Virus record (IMG/VR): IMGVR_UViG_2778261506_000010
Reading direction: 5' to 3' (one strand)
DNA length: 18,333 bases
DNA from: a virus
Lineage: Duplodnaviria > Heunggongvirae > Uroviricota > Caudoviricetes
Made by a program: the position numbers and the translations under genes
Notes under the pieces: model-generated
The model's database searches: none
What the model saw: only the letters and a program-made list of their open reading frames with translations
Told to the model about the DNA's origin: nothing
Shown: positions 1-5,326 of the stretch, piece by piece
Layout of the letters: each line of letters starts with the position of its first letter
Position numbering within the stretch: the stretch's first letter is position 1

Positions 1-588
1 ATGATCGTAGATGTTGAAGAGAAAACAGTTAATGATTTCTTTAAAAGCAACACACTCTCACCTTTTTCTGTAAGAAGGTTTTATCCGGCATACTTGATGG
101 TGGAATGTGAAGATTTTTCATTGTTAAAGAACTTGATTGCATGCTTGAATTGTGATGGCAGAACTGTGGATTTTGTTAGAAATCAAATATCACTTGCATG
201 TCTTGCTATCTTATCTTCAGAGAAAATAGTGCAAAGTTTTTTATTTGGATGTCTTAATAGTTTAGGAAGTAAAGTTAAGGCTATTATTCACACGGATATA
301 TCTGCAGCATGGAGACTTTGTGATATATCTTCAAGACTGTATCTGAGTGAAAGTCTGTTAAAAAGAAAATTAAAGCACGAAGGCTTATCATTTAGTAAGT
401 TAATTCTTGAAGAGCGAATGGTGATGGCGGAAAGGTTATTAAGCTACAATTTATATTCTGTTGGAAAAGTTGCTGAGATATGCGGTTATGAAAACACGTC
501 ATATTTTGTAAGTGTTTTCAGAAGGTATTTTGGTGTTCCTCCCCATCAATATTCATCAAGATTTTTTTTAGAAAAAGACATGATGTAA
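1..588 (+). CDS. AraC/XylS-family transcriptional regulator (AppY/Rns/GadX-like subfamily), C-terminal ~195 aa; 5' end lies upstream of the window
   Basis: Reading frame is open from base 1 to TAA at 586-588. The C-terminus carries the AraC-type HTH signature (...SESLLKRKLKHEGLSFSKLILEERM...VGKVAEICGYENTSYFVSVFRRYFGVPPHQY). Sequence is visibly AT-rich. Confidence 0.8.
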   Translation: MIVDVEEKTVNDFFKSNTLSPFSVRRFYPAYLMVECEDFSLLKNLIACLNCDGRTVDFVRNQISLACLAILSSEKIVQSFLFGCLNSLGSKVKAIIHTDISAAWRLCDISSRLYLSESLLKRKLKHEGLSFSKLILEERMVMAERLLSYNLYSVGKVAEICGYENTSYFVSVFRRYFGVPPHQYSSRFFLEKDMM

Positions 589-649
589 CGTGATGCGTTT
601 TAATGATTTTGTAATTTTCGTATTTGATAATTGTATGATGCTTTCAGCT

Positions 650-680
650 ACGCCAGAATAATCGCGGCGTTTTTCTTTTT
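650..680 (+). terminator. possible weak intrinsic terminator after the regulator gene
   Basis: Short GC stem (CGCC/GGCG, 4-5 bp, ~11-nt loop) followed by TTTTTCTTTTT. The stem is weak, so this is tentative. Confidence 0.25.
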
Positions 681-775
681 GAATAGATGTTCAAGCCTTA
701 CGCTAATGTAACTTCTATACCTTTCCTCTTCGTTCCGAACCGTGTACACCATCCGTTATTTGCGGAGGTGAGGCT

Positions 776-991
776 ATGAAATCCATGGATAAGTTAACAA
801 CGGGTGTCGCCTATGGCACCTCAGCAGGTAGTGCCGGTTACTGGTTTTTACAGCTGCTCGATAAAGTCACGCCCTCACAGTGGGCAGCAATAGGTGTGCT
901 GGGTAGCCTGGTATTTGGCCTGCTGACGTACCTGACAAACCTTTATTTCAAGATTAAAGAAGATAAGCGCAAGGCTGCGAGAGGTGAATAA
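776..991 (+). CDS. S: class II holin, phage 21 S21-type pinholin (71 aa) with dual-start motif
   Basis: Strong SD GGAGGTGAGG 6 nt upstream of ATG 776. Product begins MKSMDKL (Met1-Lys-Ser-Met4 dual start for antiholin/holin forms) and is a close match from memory to S21 (...[17 protein letters not shown]...[10 protein letters not shown]...[19 protein letters not shown]). Two predicted TM segments. Its stop overlaps the next start (TAATG). Confidence 0.9.
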
Positions 992-1488
992 TGCCTCCAT
1001 CATTACGAAAAGCCGTTGCTGCTGCTATTGGTGGCGGAGCAATTGCTATAGCATCAGTGTTAATCACTGGCCCAAGTGGTAACGATGGTCTGGAAGGTGT
1101 CAGCTACATACCATACAAAGATATCGTTGGCGTATGGACTGTATGTCACGGGCATACAGGAAAAGACATCATTCCCGGTAAAACGTATACCGAAGCAGAA
1201 TGCAAAGCCCTCCTGAATAAAGACCTTGCCACGGTAGCCAGACAAATTAACCCGTACATCAAAGTCGATATACCGGAAACAACGCGCGGCGCTCTTTACT
1301 CGTTCGTCTATAACGTGGGCGCAGGCAATTTCAGAACATCTACTCTTCTTCGCAAAATAAACCAGGGCGATATCAAGGGCGCATGTGACCAGCTACGTCG
1401 CTGGGCATACGCTGGCGGTAAGCAATGGAAAGGCCTGATGACTCGTCGTGAGATTGAGCGTGAGGTCTGTTTGTGGGGGCAACAATGA
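991..1488 (+). CDS. R: SAR endolysin (phage 21 R21-like lysozyme, T4-lysozyme/GH24 fold)
   Basis: 165-aa ORF. N-terminal Gly/Ala-rich weakly hydrophobic segment ([21 protein letters not shown]) typical of signal-anchor-release domains, followed by a lysozyme-like core. ATG overlaps the holin stop. Confidence 0.9.
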
Positions 1489-1949
1489 GCAGGGTAACCG
1501 CGATTATCTCCGCTCTGGTTATCTGCATCATCGTCTGCCTGTCATGGGCTGTTAATCATTACCGTGATAACGCCATTACCTACAAAGCCCAGCGCGACAA
1601 AAATGCCAGAGAACTGAAGCTGGCGAACGCGGCAATTACTGACATGCAGATGCGTCAGCGTGATGTTGCTGCGCTCGATGCAAAATACACGAAGGAGTTA
1701 GCTGATGCGAAAGCTGAAAATGATGCTCTGCGTGATGATGTTGCCGCTGGTCGTCGTCGGTTGCACATCAAAGCAGTCTGTCAGTCAGTGCGTGAAGCCA
1801 CCACCGCCTCCGGCGTGGATAATGCAGCCTCCCCCCGACTGGCAGACACCGCTGAACGGGATTATTTCACCCTCCGGGAACGACTGGTAATGATGCAGGC
1901 CCAACTTGAAGGTGCTCAGCAATACATAACCGAGCAGTGTTTAAAGTAA
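1485..1949 (+). CDS. Rz: Rz-like i-spanin (inner-membrane spanin subunit)
   Basis: ATG 1485 overlaps the endolysin stop (ATGA). N-terminal TM helix ([16 protein letters not shown]) then a charged, coiled-coil-prone periplasmic domain. The track start at 1473 is a GTG; ATG 1485 is preferred. Confidence 0.85.
1705..1890 (+). CDS. Rz1: Rz1-like o-spanin, outer-membrane lipoprotein encoded in the +1 frame entirely inside Rz
   Basis: 61-aa ORF nested in Rz. SD AAGGAG ~8 nt upstream. Lipoprotein signal peptide [20 protein letters not shown] (lipobox VVGC) and proline-rich mature part ([15 protein letters not shown]). Confidence 0.85.
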
Positions 1950-2068: not shown

Positions 2069-3544
2069 TTGAAAGAATATTTAGATATGAATACATCTCA
2101 TGTAAGAGTTGTTACTCATATGTGTGGGTTCCTGGTTTGGCTCTATAGTCTTTCAATGTTGCCACCAATGGTTGTAGCATTGTTTTATAAAGAAAAAAGC
2201 CTGTTCGTTTTCTTTATAACTTTCGTTATATTTTTTTGCATTGGTGGCGGAGCGTGGTATACAACTAAGAAATCTGGCATTCAATTACGTACCCGTGATG
2301 GGTTTATTATAATTGTAATGTTTTGGATTTTGTTTTCTGTTATTAGTGCATTCCCTTTATGGATTGACTCAGAACTTAATTTAACGTTCATTGATGCTCT
2401 GTTTGAAGGGGTTTCTGGAATAACAACAACAGGAGCAACTGTAATTGATGATGTTAGTTCATTACCTCGGGCATATTTGTACTATCGGTCACAGTTAAAT
2501 TTTATAGGTGGTTTAGGAGTTATTGTTCTGGCGGTTGCTGTATTGCCATTATTGGGTATTGGTGGTACAAAGCTTTATCAGTCAGAAATGCCGGGGCCAT
2601 TTAAGGATGACAAACTCACTCCCCGCCTGGCCGATACGTCACGGACACTGTGGATAACTTATTCTTTATTAGGTATTGCTTGTATTGTCTGTTATAGACT
2701 TGCAGGAATGCCTTTGTTTGATGCTATTTGTCACGGGATTTCCACAGTTTCGCTTGGTGGTTTCTCAACTCATAGCGAGAGTATCGGATATTTTAATAAC
2801 TATTTGGTTGAGCTGGTGGCTGGTTCTTTTTCCCTGCTATCGGCTTTCAACTTCACTCTTTGGTATATTGTTATTAGCAGGAAAACGATAAAACCTTTAA
2901 TCAGAGATATTGAACTTCGTTTCTTTCTGTTAATAGCCTTAGGGGTGATCATTGTTACCTCTTTCCAGGTCTGGCATATAGGTATGTATGACTTGCATGG
3001 AAGTTTTATTCATTCGTTTTTTCTTGCCAGCTCCATGCTCACTGATAATGGTTTAGCTACGCAGGATTATGCAAACTGGCCCACGCACACGATAGTGTTT
3101 TTGCTGTCGTCAAGTTTCTTTGGGGGATGTATAGGTTCAACTTGTGGTGGAATTAAGTCACTTCGATTTCTTATACTTTTCAAACAAAGCAAACACGAGA
3201 TAAATCAGCTTTCTCATCCCAGAGCGTTGTTGAGTGTAAATGTAGGAGGGAAGATAGTTACAGATCGTGTAATGAGGTCTGTATGGAGTTTCTTTTTTCT
3301 TTATACTCTCTTCACGGTGTTTTTTATACTGGTGTTAAATGGTATGGGATATGATTTTCTTACATCATTTGCAACAGTGGCTGCATGTATTAATAATATG
3401 GGATTAGGTTTTGGGGCTACTGCATCGTCATTCGGAGTGCTTAATGACATTGCAAAATATTTAATGTGCATAGCTATGATTCTTGGTCGCCTTGAAATTT
3501 ATCCTGTTATTATATTGTTTTCAGGTTTTTTTTGGCGCTCCTAA
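2069..3544 (+). CDS. trkG: TrkH/TrkG-family potassium uptake membrane protein (Rac prophage trkG-like)
   Basis: 491-aa polytopic membrane protein with TrkH-family hallmarks (...FEGVSGITTTGATV..., ...LPLLGIGGTKLYQSEMPGPFKDDKLTPR..., ...GGCIGSTCGGIKSLRFLILFKQ..., ...ILGRLEIYPVIILF...). Very AT-rich compared with flanking phage genes. Start is TTG 2069 (SD-like AAGGTGG 6 nt upstream) or ATG 2087 (MNTSHVRVV...). Confidence 0.9.
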   Translation: MKEYLDMNTSHVRVVTHMCGFLVWLYSLSMLPPMVVALFYKEKSLFVFFITFVIFFCIGGGAWYTTKKSGIQLRTRDGFIIIVMFWILFSVISAFPLWIDSELNLTFIDALFEGVSGITTTGATVIDDVSSLPRAYLYYRSQLNFIGGLGVIVLAVAVLPLLGIGGTKLYQSEMPGPFKDDKLTPRLADTSRTLWITYSLLGIACIVCYRLAGMPLFDAICHGISTVSLGGFSTHSESIGYFNNYLVELVAGSFSLLSAFNFTLWYIVISRKTIKPLIRDIELRFFLLIALGVIIVTSFQVWHIGMYDLHGSFIHSFFLASSMLTDNGLATQDYANWPTHTIVFLLSSSFFGGCIGSTCGGIKSLRFLILFKQSKHEINQLSHPRALLSVNVGGKIVTDRVMRSVWSFFFLYTLFTVFFILVLNGMGYDFLTSFATVAACINNMGLGFGATASSFGVLNDIAKYLMCIAMILGRLEIYPVIILFSGFFWRS

Positions 3545-3681: not shown

Positions 3682-4470
3682 ATGAGCGAGAAATTAAAGA
3701 TAGTCTATCGCCCATTACAAGAATTGTCACCGTATGCGCACAACGCCAGGACGCACAGTACTGAGCAGGTGGCACAACTGGTAGAAAGTATTAAGCAATT
3801 CGGCTGGACTAATCCGGTGCTGATTGACGAAAAGGGCGAAATTATTGCGGGTCACGGTCGTGTTATGGCGGCTGAAATGCTCAAAATGGATTCTGTTCCG
3901 GTCATTGTTCTGTCTGGCCTGACGGATGAGCAGAAAAAGGCGTACCGCCTGGCAGATAATCGCCTACCGATGAATGCTGGCTGGGATGAAGATCTGTTGC
4001 GGATGGAGCTGTCGGACCTAATCAATGCTGATTTTGATGTCTCCCTGACAGGCTTCGGCCCGACAGAAATTGATGAACTGTTGACGGATGTTTTGCCCGG
4101 TACAGGAAATAAGGAGGAGCCGTATACGACGAAAATTGATACGCCTGTTTATGAGCCGTCGGGCGGTAAACCGGATATCAGTGAACTGTACGACGATACG
4201 AAAACTCAGGAGCTGATCAGCCGGATACGTTCGGCGTCCCTTGAGCCTGATATTGAGAAATTCCTCCTGTGTGCGGCAGAACGTCACACGGTGTTTAATT
4301 TCAGCAGAATTGCGGACTATTACGCTCATGCCCCCGCTGAAATTCAGTGCCTTTTCGAGGAGTCGGCGCTGGTGATCATTGATTATCAGCAGGCTATTGA
4401 AAATGGATTTGTCCGAATGACGCAGCGCATGGTGGCGATCATGCATAGCGGGGAGGAGGAATATGCGTGA
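3682..4470 (+). CDS. ParB-like nuclease (ParB N-terminal/sulfiredoxin-like) domain protein, ynaK-like
   Basis: 262-aa ORF. N-terminal region resembles the ParB N-domain (...YRPLQELSPYAHNARTHSTEQVAQLVESIKQFGWTNPVLIDEKGEIIAGHGRVMAA...). C-terminal half is acidic with no obvious known domain. Confidence 0.7.
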   Translation: MSEKLKIVYRPLQELSPYAHNARTHSTEQVAQLVESIKQFGWTNPVLIDEKGEIIAGHGRVMAAEMLKMDSVPVIVLSGLTDEQKKAYRLADNRLPMNAGWDEDLLRMELSDLINADFDVSLTGFGPTEIDELLTDVLPGTGNKEEPYTTKIDTPVYEPSGGKPDISELYDDTKTQELISRIRSASLEPDIEKFLLCAAERHTVFNFSRIADYYAHAPAEIQCLFEESALVIIDYQQAIENGFVRMTQRMVAIMHSGEEEYA

Positions 4471-5326
4471 TGATTTTTGCGCCTTTATTCTGACTCACGG
4501 GCGACCGGACAAAGTTCTGACTTACCGGACGTTGCGTCGTGCTGGCTATACCGGGAAAATTTTTATCGTTGTTGATGATGAAGATAAGACACGGCATCAG
4601 TACATGGCTGAATTTGGTGAACAGGTGCTGGTATTTTCCAAAGCAGATATTGCCAGTCGTTTTGACGAAGCCGATAATTTTGGTGACCGCCGCTCAATTT
4701 TTTACGCCCGTAATGCCTGTTTCGACCTGGCAAAACTGGTCGGGTGTAAATACTTCATTCAGCTCGATGATGATTATCACGAGTTCCAGTTTCGGGTGGA
4801 TCGCAACTATGACCAGGCCTATTTCCCGATAAGGAAACTGGATGCGATCCTTTCTGAAATGCTGGCGTATTACGAATCAATACCCGCGCTTTCCATCGCT
4901 ATGTCGCAGGGCGGGGATTTTCTTGGTGACAATGGCGGCCATGCTTCGTGGGTGAAACGCAAGGCAATGAACAGCTTTATCTGTTCGGTTGATCGACCGT
5001 TCTCATTCATGGGGCGCATTAACGAGGATGTGAATACGTACACGAATCTCGGTCGCCGTGGTGAATTGTTTATGACGATCGGTGCTGTCCAGTTAGGGCA
5101 GAAACAGACGCAGAAAAACAGCGGCGGAATGACCGAGCTGTATCTGGATTCCGGGACCTACGTTAAAAGTTTTTATTCCGTCATGTATGCGCCGTCGTGC
5201 GTAAAAATCTCACTGATGGGCGCCAGCCATAAACGCATTCACCATCAGGTCACCTGGAACAACGCTGCAGTAAAAATCCTTCACGAAAAATACAGGAAGA
5301 AGACACCCTGCATATTAATGGGGTGA
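4463..5326 (+). CDS. hypothetical protein, GT-A-fold (family 2-like) putative glycosyltransferase, ydaY-like
   Basis: 287-aa ORF with SD GGAGGAGG 5 nt upstream; start overlaps the ParB-like stop (ATGCGTGA), indicating translational coupling. Motif layout resembles GT2 enzymes: FILTHGRPD (cf. IPTYNRP), IFIVVDDED (cf. IVVDDGS), FYARNACFDLAKLVGCKYFIQLDDDY (DxD region). No obvious TM helices. Confidence 0.75.
   Translation: MRDDFCAFILTHGRPDKVLTYRTLRRAGYTGKIFIVVDDEDKTRHQYMAEFGEQVLVFSKADIASRFDEADNFGDRRSIFYARNACFDLAKLVGCKYFIQLDDDYHEFQFRVDRNYDQAYFPIRKLDAILSEMLAYYESIPALSIAMSQGGDFLGDNGGHASWVKRKAMNSFICSVDRPFSFMGRINEDVNTYTNLGRRGELFMTIGAVQLGQKQTQKNSGGMTELYLDSGTYVKSFYSVMYAPSCVKISLMGASHKRIHHQVTWNNAAVKILHEKYRKKTPCILMG

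Follow-up and report, generated by a model that had tools for sequence, protein, structure and literature searches.

An AraC-family regulator gene carried as cargo between the Q antiterminator gene and the lysis cassette in a lambdoid Escherichia coli prophage

Several prophages of Escherichia coli carry AraC-like regulators, and AppY, PatE, PsrA and PsrB are known to plug into the acid-resistance and virulence networks of the host. PatE activates gadE, gadBC and hdeAB and binds the hdeA promoter, PsrB likewise activates gadE and hdeA and binds both promoters, and PsrA as well as PsrB raise GadE and YhiF (PMC10877973). AppY directly activates gadE, gadY and slp, all three of which it binds, in addition to other genes (PMC10057817). 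Together with GadW, GadX and YdeO, which are encoded on the chromosome, all of these proteins feed into gadE and the acid-fitness island (PMC10877973, PMC10057817). Here we describe an uncharacterised addition to the prophage regulators of the PatE/Psr/AppY type. Its gene lies at the beginning of an 18,333-nt stretch of viral DNA (IMG/VR record IMGVR_UViG_2778261506_000010; the whole stretch is referred to as the window), directly upstream of a lysis cassette, and we found it to be cargo of the prophage that represents no new mode of late-gene control.

Among the regulators compared, PatE (Z0321 of OI-8/CP-933H in E. coli O157:H7 EDL933; WP_000246059.1) showed the highest identity to the window protein, 53.6% by blastp over the full length. 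It is also prophage-encoded and AT-rich (35% G+C), comprises 247 amino acids (aa), and both proteins match phrog_1450-type proteins. The patE gene, however, sits after tail-fibre and pin genes near the end of its prophage and not between Q and the holin gene. The AraC-like protein of OI-57/CP-933O (WP_000301797.1, 237 aa), presumed to be PsrB from its position in OI-57 alone, belongs to the same subfamily and aligned over the full length with 39.6% identity. In EDL933 its gene is located between a DUF1133-type antiterminator gene and the holin gene, and a close relative, 38.8% identical to the window protein, lies between Q and stx2 in phage phiSTEC1575-Stx2k. Unlike the window gene, the OI-57 gene neighbours tRNAs, TerB and a NanS-p esterase instead of RudS and Blc, and PsrA and PsrB are associated with Pch regulators and type III secretion effector loci, which are absent at the window locus. 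The OI-57 protein served as Psr comparison in place of PsrA. A 2024 review places psrA at z1789 in OI-50; tblastn searches up to E 100 found no AraC homologue in the 70 kb of the potB/potC prophage from re-sequenced EDL933 (1,625,001–1,695,000). The psrA locus tags look inconsistent in the literature, z1789 in OI-50 in the 2024 review versus ecs1087 in Sp4 in a 2026 paper.

AppY, an AraC/XylS-type protein encoded by DLP12 of E. coli K-12, is homologous over its full length at 31.8% identity, and its K170 corresponds to K169 here. DLP12 also has the rusA-ylcG-Q backbone and the essD-rrrD-rzpD lysis genes in common with the prophage of the window. In contrast, the identity of the two proteins is low, and appY is found at the far end of DLP12 after tail-fibre remnants. 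The acid-resistance regulators GadW (33.8%) and YdeO (31.6%) again aligned over the full length. All full-length alignments span residues 1–232 or more, with E values of 1e-38 to 1e-87. The GadX alignment was limited to the DNA-binding domain (40.6% identity); among solved domains, this one is the closest. Over both domains, the best fold matches were those to the virulence regulators Rns, CsvR and ToxT, whose own targets, however, are pilus and toxin genes.

The regulator gene and its protein family

The regulator is represented in the window by the following features:

1–588, plus strand: AraC/XylS-family regulator, C-terminal 195 codons (residues 49–243), from the list of open reading frames (ORFs), Pfam and a full-length match to phrog_1450 (E 3.5e-107)

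328–558, plus strand: DNA-binding domain with two helix-turn-helix motifs, from the HTH_18 match to residues 110–186

The frame is open from base 1 to a TAA codon at 586–588, giving 195 aa. The ATG found at base 1 corresponds to codon 49 and not to the start of the gene, which encodes 243 aa in full. As the initial annotation had suggested, sequence from further upstream supplied what is missing: genomes identical to positions 1–1000 of the window yielded both the first 48 codons and the Q gene. The full gene comprises 732 bp (product WP_001146308.1), beginning 144 nt before window base 1, and is located at L001:11857-12588 in a genome (L001) that is 100% identical over window 1–1000. The 243-aa form is read in strains AR_0085 and MB52, each of them 100% identical over this region. 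When complete E. coli genomes were screened with window 1–1000, 974 out of 5426 matched over at least 80% of its length, many of them at 100%. No stop or frameshift is present in the 195 regulator codons of the window according to the ORF list. Between gene variants the ratio of nonsynonymous to synonymous substitution rates (dN/dS) was 0.13–0.26, and the protein has therefore been under purifying selection. Searches of the literature with the accession of the protein found nothing.

The AT bias and the C-terminal helix-turn-helix of an AraC-family regulator, both already remarked on in the initial annotation for the gene ending at 588, were borne out by base composition and Pfam. The G+C content of positions 1–588 is 32.8%, compared with 50.3% for the lysis genes (776–1949) and 46.5% for the whole window. 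In the 195-aa ORF, Pfam HTH_18 matched residues 110–186 (E 6.5e-15, 55.6 bits, cutoff 33.6) and HTH_AraC residues 152–184 (E 1e-11, 45.1 bits, cutoff 26.6). The C-terminal domain of about 100 aa has the double helix-turn-helix of the AraC/XylS family, and the predicted model superposes on the DNA-binding domains of GadX, MarA and AraC. The initial annotation had left room for a full-length protein lacking an AraC N-terminal domain, but such a domain of about 134 aa is present: residues 1–134 align with PatE, GadW, AppY and YdeO in the end-to-end alignments, and the fold matches to Rns, CsvR and ToxT include it. Only residues 49–134 of this domain are encoded inside the window.

Divided by domain, the identity to PatE amounts to 72% in the DNA-binding and 40% in the N-terminal part, and both proteins have SESLLKRKLK as their first recognition helix. 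K169 is invariant in the alignment; it is the counterpart of AppY K170, where a K170E change abolishes DNA binding (PMC10057817). For the N-terminal motif M-x-x-x-C-S-[VI]-[IV] the alignment showed an invariant C5 and a nearly invariant S6. The phrog_1450 match covered positions 8–253 of 254. The best full-length NCBIfam match was YdeO with 127.3 bits against an equivalog cut-off of 348, and the scores for GadX (85.5 against 500) and HilD (86.8 against 354) were likewise far below the cut-offs. Judged by these scores, the phage-borne protein is a paralogue and not an orthologue of GadW, YdeO or GadX, and the alignments place it in the GadW/YdeO/AppY/PatE/Psr subfamily (PHROG 1450) and not with Rns proper.

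An AlphaFold model, built on the 99% identical sequence P0001 (predicted local distance difference test 83), shows a beta-rich N-terminal domain, a helical linker and then the double helix-turn-helix domain. Foldseek against the PDB returned full-length CsvR, Rns and ToxT as top matches (E 1e-10 to 1e-7, about 250 aligned columns) at 16–20% identity and a global template-modelling (TM) score of only about 0.43, a low value that is due to a different orientation of the domains in the model. For the DNA-binding domain of GadX (3mkl) the match had a target-normalised TM score of 0.87–0.90 and a root-mean-square deviation of 1.3–1.6 Å. At the sequence level, similarity to Rns extends over residues 109–236 and to ToxT over residues 22–233. 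The protein thus has the ordinary two-domain build of an AraC-family regulator and belongs to the acid-resistance/prophage subfamily.

Position, distribution and state of the gene

The initial annotation had noticed that no recognisable Q gene precedes the holin gene. This is true of the window, which begins within the AraC gene and contains no Q gene; tested against the Q families PF06530, PF03589 and PF06323 and against Q-like PHROGs, the ORF matched AraC-type models only. Q is, however, neither missing nor replaced but sits 2.2 kb upstream of the regulator in relatives that match the window start exactly or at 99%. It encodes 125 aa (RefSeq 'antiterminator Q family protein', PF06530, phrog_79 with E 2.8e-51), and its DNA is about 91% identical to quuD of DLP12. 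The interval between Q and holin is a 3.1-kb cassette made up of a Blc-like lipocalin gene on the opposite strand (NCBIfam Blc subfamily), a gene for a RudS-type TudS+DUF1722 protein of 319 aa, and the AraC gene. After Q a candidate late promoter, TTGCTG-N17-TAACAT, was read by eye, and 100 nt after Q there is a strong hairpin with a T-run (dG -13.8, z -4.0), which fits the usual terminator after a late promoter. Late transcription from this promoter would have to cross the 3.1-kb cassette before arriving at the lysis genes. There is no sign of unusual late-gene control.

Blastn comparison with DLP12 showed that homology breaks off where Q ends (L001:9655) and is regained at L001:12765, corresponding to window position 765; the lysis genes are about 95% identical, but nmpC occupies the slot between Q and holin. 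A Rac-type prophage of strain ET358 shares the lysis genes, trkG, the late genes and the downstream breakpoint at L001:12765, with tRNAs and a DUF1133 antiterminator gene upstream and the regulator absent. Since the gene is missing from related prophages that have the same Q or the same lysis genes, it is optional cargo and not a core component of the phage. This agrees with the initial annotation, which had proposed a cargo regulator and had named a conserved core gene as the finding that would contradict it. Phage morons, as Hendrix and colleagues use the term, are autonomous cargo units, and the gene shows two of their properties, sharp breakpoints between presence and absence and a base composition unlike that of its flanking genes. 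As a site for cargo the slot between Q and holin is well known; it holds stx in Shiga toxin (Stx) phages and nmpC in DLP12. None of the literature found for AraC-type morons between antiterminator and holin genes of lambdoid phages concerns such an arrangement, as judged by title and abstract.

The distribution of the gene was followed in a sample of 80 IMG/VR viral contigs carrying variants of 85–100% identity, with up to 4 kb on each side. The order Q, blc, RudS, AraC, holin was found in 72 of the 80, and most of the others end at contig edges. The same order is present in the isolated phages IdasGreatGrand, which carries a 99.2% identical copy in the same cassette together with lambda-type head genes, and 1H12, which like several 'Lambda_ev' phages carries an 82.7% identical copy. 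More distant family members have other neighbours. A 56% identical variant stands alone between a PF06323 Q gene and the holin gene, with TrkH, ParB, TAGT and terminase genes downstream as here, a 64% variant follows directly after a PF03589 antiterminator gene, and the PatE and mEp332/ev099 copies are located after tail-fibre genes. These varied positions and neighbours show that the regulator is a mobile unit that has repeatedly landed in known cargo slots. In phiSTEC1575-Stx2k (L020:5001-8316) the Psr-like AraC gene lies between Q and a tRNA-stx2AB block, and an iraM anti-adaptor gene lies between stx2B and holin, so that several host-regulatory cargo genes share the slot with Shiga toxin.

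A phage-internal role, in which the regulator controls or replaces Q-dependent late and lysis expression, would explain its place upstream of the holin gene. The gene is co-oriented with the late operon, and the family recurs in the slot behind four types of antiterminator (PF06530, PF03589, PF06323 and DUF1133). In addition, X14-3, the only genome to match the full 18,333 bases at 100%, has kept the regulator and the lysis genes without any Q. The loss in X14-3, however, is due to an IS1 deletion reaching from cIII to just upstream of RudS, so that IS1 now joins cIII directly to RudS (L022:12078-12913). Together with Q, this deletion took N, the immunity region, the replication genes and blc, and it is thus a case of decay mediated by an insertion sequence (IS). 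Relatives including plaque-forming phages have an intact Q followed by the candidate promoter and the strong terminator-like hairpin, other members of the family are located elsewhere in phage genomes, and the composition of the gene is foreign. As DLP12 with the same Q and ET358 with the same lysis and late genes also manage without the regulator, we consider a phage-internal role highly improbable; the idea that the regulator replaces Q was rejected on account of the intact Q upstream in relatives and of these two prophages.

The prophage is located at the lambda attachment site (ybhC/bioA) and is decayed, with IS elements and with immunity, replication or tail genes missing. The regulator gene itself contains a run of eight T (T8) in codons 39–42 (L001:11973-11980), 21–28 nt upstream of window base 1. 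In 516 complete E. coli genomes with this segment, an exact T8 was found in 243 and an exact T7 in 239; T6 and T9 alleles occur too. The T7 allele is a frameshifted pseudogene according to RefSeq and leaves a 195-aa ORF that begins exactly at window base 1. T7 is present on several backgrounds, each of which is nearer to a T8 haplotype than to the other T7 backgrounds. Six loci are identical to window 1–1000; five of them read T8 and the sixth (MB52) is annotated as an intact protein of 243 aa. From these six loci, the first 48 codons being outside the window, the gene of the source genome is probably intact.

The defective state of the prophage, the T7 frameshifts that arose on several backgrounds in 239 of 516 carriers, and a degraded terminator in the window allele (see below) could together mean that the gene is a decaying remnant without current function in this host. 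We regard this as doubtful, since all six identical loci encode the intact protein, the dN/dS values are low, the 195 codons in the window are free of stops and frameshifts, and functional phages carry a 99% identical copy. The T8 run might alternatively act as a slippage-prone switch, ON with T8 and OFF with T7, T6 or T9, which would make a host regulon (acid resistance or the RudS/Blc cargo) phase-variable in the population and the gene a phage-delivered contingency regulator in E. coli. This we hold to be very doubtful: no haplotype was found with both T8 and T7, and there is thus no direct sign of fast switching. Rapid ON/OFF switching was rejected on these grounds, although T7 arose on several backgrounds. 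Intact and frameshifted alleles each make up roughly half of the natural carriers, so that isogenic contrasts are already available.

Candidate transcription signals and proposed targets

Upstream of the gene, the DNA cannot be aligned between variants of 56% to 100% identity, except for a stretch just before the start codon. There we found a conserved element, (T/C)TGG(C/T)(A/G)-N17/18-TATACT, followed by a conserved ribosome-binding site. The promoter-like element is located outside the window at about -197 to -169. Two sites with 10 of 12 consensus promoter positions lie further upstream, and promoter-like sites numbered 13 overall, which does not exceed the level of shuffled sequence (12.0). 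A 20-nt direct repeat, D1 (17/20 identical), has one copy at L001:9744-9763, after the putative late promoter but before its terminator, and another at L001:11699-11718, upstream of the AraC gene. It was considered as a shared operator and rejected; it is probably due to chance, since the 82% variant lacks the second copy.

Downstream of the gene the window contains:

589–775, plus strand: intergenic gap of exactly 187 bp; bases 589–764 belong to the AraC cassette, and homology to lysis-cassette prophages without the AraC gene begins at about 749–765

650–680, plus strand: weakened terminator-like hairpin (ACGCC...GGCGT) with T-run, from alignment and folding

The initial annotation had described the gap as holding only a weak terminator-like element, and this element is real. 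Its stem, ACGCC/GGCGT at 650–670, is followed by a T-run at 670–680, with a dG of -7.3 kcal/mol and a z of -0.87; the hairpin did not pass a consensus terminator scan. Relatives possess an intact CGCCAG-N8-CTGGCG stem with T-run (dG -11.3, z -3.0), from which the window allele differs by the loss of one T (1-nt deletion), and the 56% variant has a different stem in the same place (dG -12.5, z -3.6). Among the 80 viral contigs the intact allele is present in 58 and the deletion in 20. Folding of the entire gap revealed no unusual structure (z -0.76), and an Rfam scan of gap and cassette gave no match at E < 0.1. In some genomes the whole-window matches begin at 749–761.

Compared across the variants, these elements fit a self-contained promoter-gene-terminator unit inside the late operon. 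The regulator gene would thus be a transcription unit of its own, with a sigma-70-like promoter immediately upstream and a terminator hairpin downstream, which may be expressed in the lysogen and would in addition be included in the Q-dependent late transcript on induction. The protein is predicted to bind DNA through its two helix-turn-helix motifs. Its likeliest action, by analogy with its relatives, would be to activate promoters of the host acid-fitness island (gadE, hdeA) and thereby to raise acid resistance. We put this reading first because the characterised members of the subfamily feed into gadE and the acid-fitness island and because the first recognition helix is shared with PatE. 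Taken as a whole, a cargo AraC-type regulator with its own transcription unit that acts on host acid-resistance promoters appears rather probable to us; we are more confident than that about the identity of the gene, and the target is about an even call.

A number of observations weigh against the acid-resistance reading. Identity to PatE is only 54%, and 40% in the N-terminal domain, and the link to gadE and hdeA comes by homology. The promoter of the window allele has a poor -35 element (CTGGCG) and failed the consensus scan, and the terminator is weakened in this allele. About half of the carrier genomes are frameshifted in the T8 tract, which indicates that the gene is often dispensable to the host, and its intactness in the source genome is read from the six loci identical over window 1–1000 and not from the window. 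Finally, the regulator travels with RudS at all 80 viral-contig loci and with Blc wherever the upstream DNA suffices, and this constant company leaves a local target equally open.

The regulator could accordingly be a local, possibly ligand-responsive controller of the RudS tRNA 4-thiouridine desulfidase and the Blc-like lipocalin instead of host acid-resistance genes. RudS adjoins it in every one of the 80 contigs and Blc was seen in 74, both stand beside it in IdasGreatGrand and 1H12 as well, and control of adjacent genes is common among AraC-family regulators. Rns and ToxT, which have the nearest solved folds, bind fatty acids according to their PDB entry titles, and Blc is a lipocalin. The RudS of 1H12 is moreover an experimentally active enzyme: overexpression of this RudS_vir in E. 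coli lowered tRNA 4-thiouridine (PMC11417400). The cassette RudS appears to correspond to RudS_vir, as suggested by its architecture and the shared AraC cargo. On the other hand, family members of 56–64% identity stand alone between Q and holin without RudS or Blc, the PatE and mEp332/ev099 copies stand alone after tail-fibre genes, and the OI-57 and Stx2k-phage copies neighbour tRNAs. Such placements show that the regulator moves independently of RudS and Blc. A conserved repeated operator was not found either, the lone 20-nt repeat D1 being absent from the 82% variant. We therefore consider local control unlikely and retain action on host acid-resistance promoters as the preferred reading.

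About 18% of complete E. coli genomes carry the regulator, as do plaque-forming lambdoid phages, and its slot is the one that is used by the Shiga toxin genes in Stx phages. If activation of gadE and hdeA holds true, commensal and enterotoxigenic-type (ETEC-type) strains would have in it a further input to acid resistance that is widespread and horizontally mobile.

Lysis cassette and neighbouring genes

The lysis cassette that follows the gap comprises:

764–768, plus strand: Shine-Dalgarno sequence of the holin gene, GGAGG, read from the sequence and kept in all aligned loci

776–991, plus strand: holin of the S21/EssD type (P21-type), 71 aa, with MKSM dual-start motif (PF04971, E 2e-35; RefSeq essD)

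991–1488, plus strand: endolysin, lysozyme of the RrrD/R21 type (PF00959, E 8.9e-46; RefSeq rrrD)

1485–1949, plus strand: Rz spanin (PF03245, E 3.7e-53; RefSeq 'lysis protein' at L001:13485-13949)

1705–1890, plus strand: Rz1-like lipoprotein ORF embedded in Rz, from the ORF list

The N-terminus of the endolysin (window 991–1100) is hydrophobic. The MKSM holin (776–787) together with an endolysin of the signal-anchor-release (SAR) type is what we take to be a pinholin/SAR-endolysin system like that of phage 21 and DLP12.

The RudS-type gene upstream of the regulator is located at L001:10546-11505 (also at L009:7690-8649); RefSeq lists the 319-aa product as 'YbgA family protein', and it belongs to phrog_3275 and has RudS architecture. 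A tRNA de-modifying enzyme, an AraC regulator and a Blc-like lipocalin form an odd set of cargo. A second AT-rich cargo gene of the late region, as in the Rac prophage, lies between Rz and a ParB-like gene and encodes a TrkG/TrkH potassium transporter (window 2069–3544, PF02386 with E 9e-144, 37.7% G+C). Further downstream, at 3682–5326, a gene for a 262-aa ParB_N/Srx-domain protein overlaps by 8 nt with that of a TET-associated glycosyltransferase (TAGT; PF20691, E 4.9e-36; RefSeq 'GREB1-related'). The two genes, located just upstream of the small terminase gene, may form a DNA-modification pair. One or both of them are RefSeq pseudogenes in several matching genomes, while both ORFs are intact in the window.

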